The notes under the pieces were generated by a model that searched no databases, had not been told where the DNA came from, and was given only the letters and a program-made list of their open reading frames with translations. Below, one piece after another: positions 5,467 to 28,005 of a DNA stretch of 64,000 nt; position 1 is the first letter of the stretch; every line of letters starts with the position of its first letter. Made by a program: the position numbers and the translations under genes. The stretch lies in the sequence record OR906198.1. One strand, written 5' to 3'. The DNA comes from Escherichia phage BP32.

Positions 5467-8400
5467 TTATTCAACCCATTCAAATTTAACCGTTTTATTC
5501 ACTGGGTCAGGAATAATACGAACATTACCAATTCGTAAGAAATCACGAATAGTAAGATTCCCCATTATAGCATTATCAGATGGTAAAGCACCAATATCAG
5601 ATGGCTGAGGAGGGTTACCCCCATCAAATACCTGAACAAAACTTGACCAAGAGTTTTTAGTTTTCTGCCATGTACGCGTCCAGCGAGTGGTGCGCGCTTC
5701 TGGGGTCGTTGGATAAGTAATCCAATCTTGGTAAAGCGAATCGAGTGTGTTACCAAACTGAGTCAACGTACCAGGAGATTTAACCTCTTCGCCGCGTTCT
5801 AAGTATGGAAGACCAGTCACTTCATTAGTTTTTTCAACCATCTTAAAATAACCCGGGAACTGGTTATAAGTGGCTGAATCATTAATATCGATTGACCAGA
5901 ATCCTACGGTATCAGATGTTGGCGCACGGGTATATAAATCAGAGGTTTTAGTACCCTGAGAACGAATTCTCGAGTTAACAGTTAAACCACCTGAAGTTAT
6001 AGTAGCACCTTTGGCAATGATTAAGCTTTCACCAATTGTAACCTGACCAGATTGATTATTAATAGCTAAAGGACGTAATCCATTAAATCCACCAGTCTGA
6101 TCGCCAGATGCAGTAAGCATAAAATAGGTGTTAGCAGCATCATTGCGAATAAAGAATCCATAATCACCGTTTATTGCTCTAAAAGCATTCGACGATTTAC
6201 TGATAAATTCGCCATTAGCAGTAACTGAACTACCGAATGTTGCAACTCCATTCGCATTCAATGTTCCTGAAGCATTCACATTTATCGGTGTTACTGTACC
6301 ATTAATGCTAAATGCTATATTACCATCTTTATTGCGTTGAGAATAAAAGTGATAAGATGTGTCATCACTAACTTCAAATACAGTAGAACGTGTTGTATCT
6401 GACCCGCCACCGAACTGATTTCCCCAAACTGTGATATTCATCGTCTGTGCTGGGTTAGTTCCAGTTTGAGGTCCTTTTTCAAAAATCAATTGAGTTGCTG
6501 TTCCAGTATTAGAAATAGTCAATGTACTATTTGCTGAAACTGATCCACCGAACGTAGCAGTACTAGATGATACAAGAGGGGCACTCAGATTCGTTTGTCG
6601 GGTTAAGGTTAGTGAACCATTAACCGTTTGTGCAATATCCCTACGAATGAACTGAGATGAATCTAGACCATCCAGTAAATTACTATCTACAGCTTTTGCT
6701 TTTAACGGCAAATAATTTGCTAATACACGGTTTAATTCGTATGGCGATACTGCATAACTATTTTTCTCGTACAATTCTAATGACTGTGTTGAACCAACTG
6801 TATCATTACCAACGAATGTAATTGAACCAGATGAAGTTTTAACAAAACCTCTTACCAGGGTAGTAGCTGCCCAAGTAGGTTCACTCTGCACAATCCATTT
6901 TAAATTTTTTGGAGATACAGCAGTATTTGCTGACGTTCCAGCTACAGTTTCAGACTGAGTTGCAACTTTAATAACGCCTTCCTGTGCTTCAGTAGATTTA
7001 GTACCTAAAAGCTTTTTAGGAGTTATTAGAACATTATCCAATGTTCCTGCAGCAGCTTCAACTTGTGTAGCTACACGAAGTGTACCACGCTGTGTCTCAT
7101 TTGCTTCAAGAATATTAAGGGTATAATGGTCCCAGAGAGTTCCTGATTCAACTAATCCAGATAGAGCAACAACAGAAGTACGATCAGTACTATTAAATCT
7201 GGTTTTAATTTTTAATGGTGTAGAGATACGAGTATCGTCGACGCCTGCGTCGAATTCAACTTGCGTAGCAATTTCAGCTATACCACTTAAACTTTCAGTT
7301 GCTTTACGGTCATTTAAAGTTTTAGGAGTGACTGCACGAGTATAATCAGTTCCTGTATTAACTTCACTTTGCGTAGCAATTTCAATTAAACCAATTCTTC
7401 CATCAGTTGATGTCTTTTTATGTAACGTTTCTGGCGTTACAACAGCATTTGCCCATCCTTCCTGACTTTGTCCAGCAATTACTTCACTTTCAACTGCTAA
7501 AATTACCGCACCTTGTTGTGTTGGAGTAGCTTTATACTGATCCAAAGCTTTAGGTGAAACAACTAAATTATTAGTGTTTTTATTATAAACATTCGTACCA
7601 TTTAATTCACGGCTAGAAGCTGGAGTAGCACCTGCAGTAGATACAAAGGTTACAATACCAGATAATGATTCAGAACCTTGACGAGCTTGAAGCTTTTTAG
7701 GAGTGATGATTGTAGCATCATCAGTACCTGCATTAGTTTCTTGCTGCGTAGCAATTTCAGCAACACCTCTACGAGTTTCTGTGGCAGTTCTTTCATTCAG
7801 CTTTTTAGGAGTGACGATAATATCATCAGCAAAAGAGAATGTAGTATCCTGGTTCACTTGGGCAGTAGTTGCTATTCTTGCGATACCTCTACGAGTTTCT
7901 GTAGCAGTACGGTTAGCTAATGTTTCTGGTGTAATTGCTAATTCTTTTTGCGGAGAATTTTCTAAATCAGCATTTGCTTGAGCTTGTGTAGCTAAAGCTA
8001 TTACGCCTAATCTTGCTCTAGTAGAATCATTTAAAGAATCAACTCTTTCAACTGTTGGAACGTTTTGTTGTACAACCCAGTATTTTCCGTCAGAATCTTC
8101 TATATAAGCAAGCTGTAAAACTGGAACATAATTAGTTTCGCCGTTAAAAACTAATTCTTGAACAGTCACCCATTTAGTTTCAGGCGGATATTCTGAACGT
8201 TTTGGGAATTGCAGCAATTGAACTGAAGAAGCAATTTTATCTTCACCAGCAGCTTTGATTTTAACTGTTTGGCCTTTTCTCATGTAATTCATGGAAATTT
8301 TAACAGTATCACCAATGGAAATATCAGTTGGAAGCTGAAGTTCAATTGTTTGAGTTGTTCCGTTATTCGCTCCAAATACCATAACTTCTTCATTTGGAAG

Positions 8401-21618: not shown

Positions 21619-21648
21619 GTTTACAAGTCCCTCATGTTGTGTTATAGT
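21619..21648 (+). promoter_or_regulatory. T4-early-like promoter upstream of alc (GTTTAC ... TATAGT), part of a duplicated cassette
   Basis: GTTTAC 21619-21624, -10-like 21643-21648, 18 nt spacer. Confidence 0.5.
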
Positions 21649-21676
21649 AATCTTACTGACATAACATGAGGACTTT

Positions 21677-22183
21677 ATGATGGATTTACAGCTTATTACT
21701 ACTAAAATGGTCGTTGAAGCATATGGTGATACTACAGATGGGATTTCTGTATTTAAAGGAAATCGTCGAGTTGGATATATCACCGATCTTAAGAAAGATT
21801 TAGCTAAGCAAGTCAAGCGGAAAACGACCATTAAAGAATATCGAAATCGTCGTCTTGAGCAAGCCCGTGATATGCTTCCTGATGCGGTTGAGGAGATGAA
21901 AGTCTTTTTAGAAAATCAACTCGCTAAGTATGAGTGCGAAGTGTTCATTAATCAGACTCAGCCTAATGTTCATATCAATAGCTGCAAATGCTATATCATC
22001 GTTAATCCTTTGACAGGAAAACATCGTCTTGGAATTAGTAATCCAAATCGTAGTGCATCAGATATGGCAGAAGATGTTGCGGCATGCTTTAAAATTTCTA
22101 AATCTCCAGCTGAACATCATATTTTAATTAACGGTCTTTCTCAAGACGATATTATAGAGGTTATTAAAACTTTATGCAATTAA
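21677..22183 (+). CDS. alc: Alc (host transcription terminator acting on cytosine DNA)
   Basis: 167-168 aa ORF MMDLQLITTKMVVEAYGD... in T4 alc position and size. Confidence 0.85.
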   Translation: MMDLQLITTKMVVEAYGDTTDGISVFKGNRRVGYITDLKKDLAKQVKRKTTIKEYRNRRLEQARDMLPDAVEEMKVFLENQLAKYECEVFINQTQPNVHINSCKCYIIVNPLTGKHRLGISNPNRSASDMAEDVAACFKISKSPAEHHILINGLSQDDIIEVIKTLCN

Positions 22184-22527
22184 GTAATACGACAGCAGGT
22201 TTGCTATTAATTGTAATTGCATTAGGCGGAACTTCTTTAATTTTAAAAAATAAAATTGAAAGATTAGAAACGTCTGTTGTAGAAATTACAAAAACGGCCA
22301 ATGAAAACGCTTTAGCATTAAATGATTTAAAAAATCAATATAATTATATTGATGCAATGAATAATAAAAATCGTGAGGCAATTGCTGCTATTGAGCGTGA
22401 AAATGAAAAGCTGCGCAAAGACGCAAAGAAGGCGGATGTGGCGGCTCATAAGCCAGGATTGGTTGAAAAACAAATCAACAACTCCTTTAACAAGTTCGCA
22501 GAAGACATCCAGGACCTTTCTAAATGA
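22174..22527 (+). CDS. Predicted membrane-anchored coiled-coil protein (pseT.3-like position)
   Basis: N-terminal hydrophobic helix GLLLIVIALGGTSLIL then charged helical region; start overlaps alc stop. Confidence 0.6.
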   Translation: MQLSNTTAGLLLIVIALGGTSLILKNKIERLETSVVEITKTANENALALNDLKNQYNYIDAMNNKNREAIAAIERENEKLRKDAKKADVAAHKPGLVEKQINNSFNKFAEDIQDLSK

Positions 22528-22823
22528 TTAAACTATCAGCAGTAATATTATCTATTGGTCTTCTAGTTGGTTGTTCTACAAAGCCTCTAGAAGTAAAGAA
22601 AGAAACAGTTCATCCTAATTGGCCTGTACAAATAAAGTCATATGACGAAGCTAAACTATCTTGGCAAGTTAAAGTTATTGATGGTAAAGCTTGGGTCGGT
22701 ATGCCATTTGAAGATTCCCAGGAATTTCGTATTTGGCTTAATGATGTAAAACGATATGTACATGATCAGAAAACTATGATATGTTATTATCGTCAAGTGT
22801 TAAAAGAGGATAAATGCAAATGA
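22524..22823 (+). CDS. Predicted lipoprotein (signal peptide with LVGC lipobox)
   Basis: MIKLSAVILSIGLLVGCSTKP N-terminus; start overlaps upstream stop. Confidence 0.6.
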   Translation: MIKLSAVILSIGLLVGCSTKPLEVKKETVHPNWPVQIKSYDEAKLSWQVKVIDGKAWVGMPFEDSQEFRIWLNDVKRYVHDQKTMICYYRQVLKEDKCK

Positions 22824-23012
22824 TTTCATGGCATCAATTTGAACATCTCAAAGGATTGATTTATGAATCCGAGATGGCTGCAATGATTTACGGACGCCAG
22901 ATTCAGCGGTTAGAATCTTTACCTCCAACTAATGATGTTTTATTAGCTCAATCTCGTGCTAATCTTAAAAATGAATACCAAAATAAGTGGGGTAAAGCAT
23001 CTAAAGACCTGC

Positions 23013-24270
<1,258 letters not shown>

Positions 24271-27273: not shown

Positions 27274-27609
27274 ATGTCTGAAGTACAACAGCTACCAATT
27301 CGTGCTGTCGGTGAATATGTTATTTTAGTTTCTGAACCTGCACAAGCCGGCGATGAAGAAGTTACAGAATCAGGACTTATTATCGGTAAACGTGTCCAAG
27401 GTGAAGTTCCTGAACTGTGTGTAGTTCACTCTGTTGGTCCTGATGTTCCTGAAGGTTTCTGCGAAGTTGGTGATTTGACTTCTCTTCCAGTTGGTCAAAT
27501 TCGAAACGTTCCGCATCCTTTTGTAGCTCTGGGTCTTAAGCAGCCAAAAGAAATTAAACAAAAATTCGTTACTTGTCACTATAAAGCTATTCCGTGTCTT
27601 TATAAGTGA
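27274..27609 (+). CDS. 31: Co-chaperonin gp31 (GroES analogue for capsid folding)
   Basis: [39 protein letters not shown] matches T4 gp31; 111 aa. Confidence 0.95.
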
Positions 27610-27617
27610 TATAAATA
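27610..27617 (+). promoter_or_regulatory. T4-type late promoter motif TATAAATA downstream of gene 31
   Basis: Exact TATAAATA on plus strand. Confidence 0.4.
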
Positions 27618-27756: not shown

Positions 27757-28005
27757 ATGATTAAACAATTACAACACGCTCTTGAACTGCAACGAAACGC
27801 ATGGAATAATGGTCACGAAAACTATGGCGCATCTATTGATGTTGAAGCCGAAGCTCTTGAAATCCTGCGTTATTTCAAACATCTGAATCCTGCTCAAACC
27901 GCATTAGCTGCTGAGCTCCAGGAAAAAGATGAACTTAAGTATGCTAAGCCTCTGGCTTCTGCTGCACGAAAAGCAGTTCGTCACTTTGTGGTAACACTGA
28001 AGTAA
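27757..28005 (+). CDS. rIII: rIII lysis inhibition accessory protein
   Basis: 82 aa MIKQLQHALELQRNAWNNGHENYGASIDVEAEALEILRYFKHL matches T4 rIII. Confidence 0.9.
   Translation: MIKQLQHALELQRNAWNNGHENYGASIDVEAEALEILRYFKHLNPAQTALAAELQEKDELKYAKPLASAARKAVRHFVVTLK

Follow-up and report, generated by a model that had tools for sequence, protein, structure and literature searches.

The stretch of DNA analysed here, 64,000 nucleotides from Escherichia phage BP32 (sequence record OR906198.1) and referred to as the window in the following, is that of a Tequatrovirus, i.e., a T4-like phage. On its plus strand, two open reading frames (ORFs) encode proteins of 117 and 99 amino acyl residues, and the coordinates assigned to them in a preliminary description of this DNA agree exactly with the ORF list (Table 1). 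The overlap that had been described for both ORFs is confirmed: the sequence ATGA at 22524-22527 is common to them and contains the ATG of the second (22524-22526) as well as the TGA of the first (22525-22527). The ORF for the 117-residue protein shares 10 nt with the 3' end of alc, and that for the 99-residue protein is joined to the next gene by a second ATGA overlap, a tight packing that is typical of a co-translated block. The order of genes, rnlA, alc, pseT.3, pseT.2, pseT.1, and pseT, is the same as in T4. The upstream neighbor encodes Alc (Pfam PF17527, E 4e-90) and the polynucleotide kinase PseT (PF25109 and PF13671; PHROG 505) is encoded further downstream. The previous localization of the pair between alc and pseT is accurate on the upstream side, where alc is directly adjacent, but on the downstream side two more ORFs, pseT.1 and a member of PHROG 2364, intervene before pseT. 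Minus-strand ORFs across the region (45, 31, 48, and 46 amino acyl residues) were taken as chance occurrences; they run antisense to two conserved genes and are without support.

A 1.8-kb region of this locus shows 97% identity to numerous Tequatrovirus genomes and is matched in 521 phage records. The same 97% identity, over all 1801 bases, is found with PV654520.1, deposited as Pseudomonas phage vB_PSGBLB0006 (host P. aeruginosa ATCC 9027, 142 kb). Rather than a genuine Pseudomonas phage, this record seems to represent a T4-like genome that is incomplete, a contaminant, or a phage whose host was mislabelled.

The ORF situated between pseT.1 and pseT (22956-23366, plus strand) belongs to PHROG 2364, a family of unknown function, is absent from T4, and is matched in 471 phage records. 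Its copy in AV122 starts with ATG AAA ACT CTG (MKTLLERY...). In the BP32 sequence at 23040-23060, an A-run is one base shorter than in AV122 (ATGAAAC), and the ATG at 23047 reads ATG AAA CTC TGT TAG. The conserved body of the ORF is open only from the GTG at 22956, the ATG at 22971, or the ATG at 23013, all of which overlap pseT.1, and a second difference of one nucleotide is located just upstream of the shortened A-run. This configuration could go back to a sequencing error in the homopolymer, to a true frameshift that would make the gene a pseudogene, or to the use of an alternative start.

Table 1. Positions in the window of features at the pseT.3/pseT.2 locus of phage BP32.
Feature	Position	Strand	Basis
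Candidate early promoter for alc, pseT.3, pseT.2, and downstream genes	21620..21648	+	Consensus match; almost the same sequence in T4 and AV122
pseT.3 orthologue, i-spanin (inner-membrane subunit), 117 aa	22174..22527	+	ORF; PHROG 739; 89% identity to T4
i-spanin, single N-terminal transmembrane domain, codons 6-24	22189..22245	+	Kyte-Doolittle 2.1
i-spanin, heptad-patterned helical (coiled-coil) periplasmic region, codons 26-90 (predicted)	22249..22443	+	a/d occupancy 0.72; sub-threshold Pfam coiled-coil matches
i-spanin, most conserved motif KPGLVEKQIN, codons 93-102	22450..22479	+	Invariant columns; putative o-spanin contact region
pseT.2 orthologue, 99-aa precursor of the o-spanin (outer-membrane lipoprotein subunit)	22524..22823	+	ORF; PHROG 812; 98% identity to T4
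o-spanin, signal peptidase II signal, codons 1-17, lipobox LVGC (predicted)	22524..22574	+	Lipobox pattern; Ser at +2; Cys17 invariant
o-spanin, Cys87 codon, TGT	22782..22784	+	Direct reading; invariant in alignment
o-spanin, Cys98 codon, TGC	22815..22817	+	Direct reading; invariant in alignment

Transcription signals

Upstream of alc, a candidate for a sigma-70 promoter of the T4 early type (TTTACA-17-TG-TATAGT) agrees with the consensus at 10 of 12 positions. On the plus strand between 11611 and 27610, i.e., in the 16 kb around the pair, the late-promoter motif TATAAATA was not found, and the idea of a dedicated late promoter was dropped for this reason. Similarly, no terminator-like site was found on the plus strand from alc to pseT. 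A possible MotA box of a middle promoter inside alc (TGCTTTA, 22085-22091, picked by eye) was rejected since no acceptable -10 element exists at the right spacing. In a dual-omics study of T4, the RNA of pseT.3 as well as that of pseT.2 is classified as early (PMC9697503, supplementary files 4 and 6); at the protein level, PseT.2 belongs to the early and PseT.3 to the middle class (PMC9697503). Together, the candidate promoter before alc, the lack of a late motif or terminator in the stretches searched, and the early RNAs of T4 support the view, already expressed in the preliminary description, that both genes are part of an early operon.

The intergenic region between rnlA and alc contains a strong hairpin at 21629-21674 (plus strand), in which CCTCATGTTGTGTTAT pairs with ATAACATGAGG. 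The segment 21612-21690 folds with -28.1 kcal/mol (z = -4.95), and none of 200 shuffled sequences folded as well. The 5' arm of the hairpin shares positions with the candidate early promoter of alc, and the 3' arm holds the alc Shine-Dalgarno sequence GAGG. As judged from this arrangement, an RNA started at the early promoter would be devoid of the 5' arm, and an RNA reading through from rnlA would sequester the ribosome-binding site of alc. T4 and AV122 have almost the same sequence at this site; the sole difference in the arms of the T4 hairpin, a G for an A, leads to a G-U pair.

The two envelope proteins and their relatives

In a scan of the PHROGs families at a threshold of E <= 0.01, the 117-residue protein matches PHROG 739 (E 6.6e-37) and the 99-residue protein matches PHROG 812 (E 1.8e-42), in both cases over the full length, and both families are named 'Rz-like spanin' and placed in the lysis category. 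Weaker matches to Rz-like spanin families were obtained with the 117-residue protein only (PHROG 214, E 5.6e-6; PHROG 89, E 1.3e-3), and the 99-residue protein additionally shows a weak match to one family of unknown function. Identities to PseT.3 and PseT.2 of T4 amount to 89 and 98%, respectively, over the full length. Both T4 genes carry the name 'Rz-like spanin' in RefSeq, and in other phage records among the matches the pair is called Rz-like spanins, i-/o-spanin, or Rz/Rz1. Each testable defining feature of the T4 PseT.3/PseT.2 spanin family is present here, and we regard it as almost certain that the pair is the two-component spanin of a T4-like phage and that its genes are orthologues of pseT.3 and pseT.2; the products are therefore called i-spanin and o-spanin.

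In many deposited T4-like genomes, one or both of the genes are annotated as 'hypothetical protein' or 'putative membrane protein' and, because of such annotations, the pair is easily mistaken for new if judged from sequence alone. Pfam and NCBIfam contain no model for either protein, a result that is uninformative rather than negative, and a PDB sequence search with both proteins retrieved nothing better than E 0.13, i.e., no solved relative. It was for the want of such models and relatives, and for the many 'hypothetical protein' entries in GenBank, that the pair looked open when no tools were employed.

As the spanin family requires, the i-spanin is a small protein comprising one N-terminal transmembrane domain and a helical, heptad-patterned domain. 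Residues 6-24 (TTAGLLLIVIALGGTSLIL) constitute its sole hydrophobic stretch and the best window of 19 residues, with a mean Kyte-Doolittle value of 2.1. The tail of 92 residues contains as many basic (K+R = 16) as acidic (D+E = 16) residues. Between residues 26 and 90, the a and d positions of a heptad pattern are hydrophobic in 72-80% of the cases, a level that 9 of 5000 shuffled sequences attained, and coiled-coil families of Pfam match the protein only below threshold. The transmembrane helix followed by a charged coiled-coil that had been noted for this protein is thus well founded. The i-spanin is devoid of cysteines, and an N-in/C-out topology is predicted from its orthology with the T4 pair and with Rz/Rz1 of phage lambda.

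The N-terminus of the o-spanin, MIKLSAVILSIGLLVGC, fits a PROSITE-style lipobox pattern with the lipobox LVGC ending in Cys17, which is predicted to be lipid-modified and to become the first residue of the mature protein. According to the sorting rule of the Lol pathway, an Asp at position +2 leads to retention in the inner membrane; the o-spanin has Ser at +2 and Thr at +3, which agrees with sorting to the outer membrane. The lipobox and these residues bear out the lipoprotein signal that had been recognized in the 99-residue protein. Besides Cys17, the o-spanin contains only two cysteines, Cys87 and Cys98, and its four prolines do not form a run.

By tblastn, the 99-residue protein is found in 1241 phage records and the 117-residue protein in 902, numbers which argue that the pair is not a product of chance. 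Eight homologues were aligned, with T4 at one end of the range and, at the other, Aeromonas phage 65 as well as Proteus phage PM135, which is T5-like. Cys17, Cys87, and Cys98 of the o-spanin are invariant in all eight, down to 23% identity. For the i-spanin, in which identity goes down to 19%, the only invariant columns are K93, P94, L96, K99, and I101 (KPxLxxKxI), and in Klebsiella phages only residues 94-117 are detectable by tblastn, with 79% identity. We infer that this conserved C-terminal segment might be the part of the i-spanin that holds the o-spanin.

The location next to alc is kept across several genera of the Tevenvirinae. Both spanin genes stay adjacent in differing neighborhoods as well, the pair being situated between tk.4 and the tail-fibre gene 36 in Aeromonas phage 65 and adjoining a dNMP kinase gene in Proteus phage PM135. 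In Shigella phage SP18 (locus 407-1157), alc upstream of the spanin genes is annotated in two pieces, alcb and alca. In PM135 (NC_042090; Demerecviridae), a gene (locus 1079-1489) for a 'hypothetical protein' is located directly upstream of the annotated 'Rz-like spanin', which is the o-spanin homologue, and the two genes overlap by 37 nt. The product of the upstream gene aligns with i-spanins at 19% identity and displays an N-terminal hydrophobic segment and the KPxLxxKxI motif; it probably is an unannotated i-spanin. If so, the T4-type pair would occur outside the Straboviridae, too.

Compared with the pair from BP32, PseT.3 and PseT.2 of T4 have the same sizes (117 and 99 residues), the same ATGA junction, and the same neighbors, alc upstream and pseT.1 downstream. 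They also share the transmembrane domain, the lipobox, Cys87 and Cys98, and an i-spanin without cysteine. The i-spanins differ by 13 substitutions, all in the N-terminal tail, the transmembrane domain, and the helical region as far as residue 90, and the o-spanins by a single one, V92 in BP32 for E in T4. Residue 86 of the o-spanin is Ile in BP32 and is encoded by an ambiguous codon (Ile or Thr) in T4 (NC_000866, locus 8175-8177). No difference touches a defining residue. As to the distribution of these changes, 12 of the 13 amino acid differences of the i-spanin are located in residues 1-55 (N-terminal tail, transmembrane domain, and first helix). The C-terminal part of the i-spanin and the whole o-spanin are almost unchanged (22340-22823, as opposed to the divergent 22174-22340). 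Such uneven divergence fits a conserved contact interface or, alternatively, a mosaic recombination joint inside pseT.3.

The T4-type pair resembles Rz/Rz1 of phage lambda in consisting of an inner-membrane protein of type II, with helices in the periplasm, and an outer-membrane lipoprotein. However, the gene for lambda Rz1 is embedded in that for Rz in the +1 frame, whereas the spanin genes of BP32 are arranged end to end. In contrast to lambda Rz1, which is a short, proline-rich, and unstructured protein, PseT.2 is larger, has a predicted beta-alpha-beta fold, and contains only four prolines. Similarity of the BP32 i-spanin to other Rz-like families (PHROG 214, PHROG 89) is marginal. Because of the arrangement of the genes, the larger o-spanin that is not proline-rich, and the marginal similarity, the BP32 pair does not belong to the sequence family of Rz/Rz1, although by analogy it is expected to work in the same way. 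Gp11 of phage T1, a unimolecular spanin, likewise disrupts the outer membrane after wall degradation and starts with an outer-membrane lipoprotein signal, but combines both anchors and a beta-rich periplasmic domain in one polypeptide, whereas BP32 has two proteins and a helical i-spanin. The assignment of T4 PseT.3/PseT.2 as a spanin of separated architecture is reportedly also credited to Summer et al. in 2007.

Probable lysis function and early synthesis

Experimental evidence for the function of this family comes from T4, whose pair has been assigned to the separated class of architectures (Kongari et al., 2018; PMC6139136) and is, together with lambda Rz/Rz1 and P2 LysB/LysC, one of three paradigm two-component spanins (PMC6139136). 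In a lambda background, cloned T4 pseT.3 and pseT.2 restored lysis to the Rz-am/Rz1-am mutant (Kongari et al., 2018; PMC6139136). This complementation shows that the T4 and lambda pairs have the same function, and homotypic disulfide links are needed in both (PMC6139136). Lysis is abolished by the C87S as well as by the C98S mutation in PseT.2, both cysteines therefore being essential, and a disulfide-linked dimer of PseT.2 is formed only if PseT.3 is present (PMC6139136). Of the two helices of PseT.3, only the first shows coiled-coil propensity, whereas both helices of lambda Rz are coiled-coil (Kongari et al., 2018; PMC6139136).

By orthology with the T4 pair and lambda Rz/Rz1, the i-spanin of BP32 would be held in the inner membrane and extend its C-terminal domain into the periplasm, and the o-spanin would be inserted into the inner leaflet of the outer membrane. 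Binding of the two would form a complex that spans the periplasm and is threaded through the peptidoglycan mesh; the contact between i-spanin and o-spanin is described as via the C-termini for lambda Rz/Rz1. The o-spanin subunits would be joined by intermolecular disulfides at Cys87 and Cys98. As long as the wall is intact, the complexes could not move or change their shape, and early synthesis would be harmless. As soon as the holin (T) has triggered and the wall has been degraded by the endolysin (E), the complexes would diffuse, cluster, and collapse, pulling inner and outer membrane together until they fuse, which would remove the last barrier to the release of phage. This scheme follows the membrane fusion model with its restraint of spanins by peptidoglycan (PMC6139136), and for the BP32 pair the membrane topology, the lipid modification, the formation of a complex, and the fusion are predicted by orthology with the pairs from T4 and lambda.

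The preliminary description had proposed a different role for the pair, namely superinfection exclusion or an inhibition of envelope functions of the host. Like the pair from BP32, the phage proteins Imm and Sp of T4, Llp of T5, and Cor of phi80 are small, early, and located in the envelope, and some of them are lipoproteins. An early exclusion or envelope-inhibition system like T4 Imm/Sp or Cor/Llp, for which lysis would not be the function, would agree with the early expression of the T4 pair and the location of both proteins in the envelope. However, superinfection exclusion in T4 is assigned to other genes, imm and sp, and exclusion proteins such as Imm, Sp, Llp, and Cor each work alone, either on a receptor or on the entry of DNA, whereas the T4-type spanin is an obligate pair for which a role in lysis has been proven with the T4 proteins. 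Moreover, the combination of a protein with a transmembrane domain and an outer-membrane lipoprotein with conserved cysteines is the defining arrangement of spanins. No relationship to a known exclusion family was detected for either protein in PHROGs (E <= 0.01), Pfam, or NCBIfam, and all named PHROGs matches are spanin families. No report of an exclusion phenotype of the PseT.3/PseT.2 pair was found in the papers searched. It is consistent with a function other than lysis that the pair does not adjoin holin or endolysin genes (PMC6139136, legend to Fig. 8), but in lysis lambda Rz/Rz1 can be replaced completely by the T4 orthologues, and this activity is lost on point mutation of Cys87 or Cys98 (PMC6139136). 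Exclusion in place of lysis therefore has hardly any probability left, and we abandon this role in favor of that of a T4-type spanin. An inhibition of host envelope functions applies in the loose sense that the outer membrane is destroyed at lysis, but not in any other sense.

Further downstream, some 5 kb away from the spanin genes, the window encodes the lysis-inhibition accessory protein RIII (27757-28005, plus strand; PHROG 1457, E 4.7e-44). The rIII gene is located just after gene 31 (27274-27609, PHROG 931), and a late-promoter motif TATAAATA at 27610-27617 precedes it by about 140 nt. The window thus comprises two separate lysis-related loci.

A further reading accepts the pair as a spanin but assigns to it a second job before lysis: bridges formed early would tether both membranes and contribute to the stability of the envelope during lysis inhibition, or would interfere with superinfection or DNA entry. 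In T4, the early RNAs, early PseT.2, and middle PseT.3 would place such bridges long before lysis (15-20 minutes) (PMC9697503), and the conserved position next to alc in several Tevenvirinae genera as well as, weakly, the presence of rIII 5 kb away point in the same direction. However, early synthesis is well enough explained by the inertness of spanins until the wall is degraded, which would allow it to be tolerated, and no data point to a second function. Also, the early context is not universal, given that the pair of Aeromonas phage 65 adjoins gene 36. We consider an additional job of this kind very improbable. Experimental work on why T4-type spanins are made early was not found in the literature.

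The feature described here is real, and both the early expression and the spanin identity are already on record for T4. As the BP32 copy is nearly identical to the T4 pair, its importance goes little beyond a correct annotation of the two genes. Expression early rather than late is unusual for lysis proteins and would be compatible with an additional role at a stage that precedes lysis. If the pair did have such a second job, exclusion would be a genuine function, secondary to lysis, of a protein already known to act in lysis.
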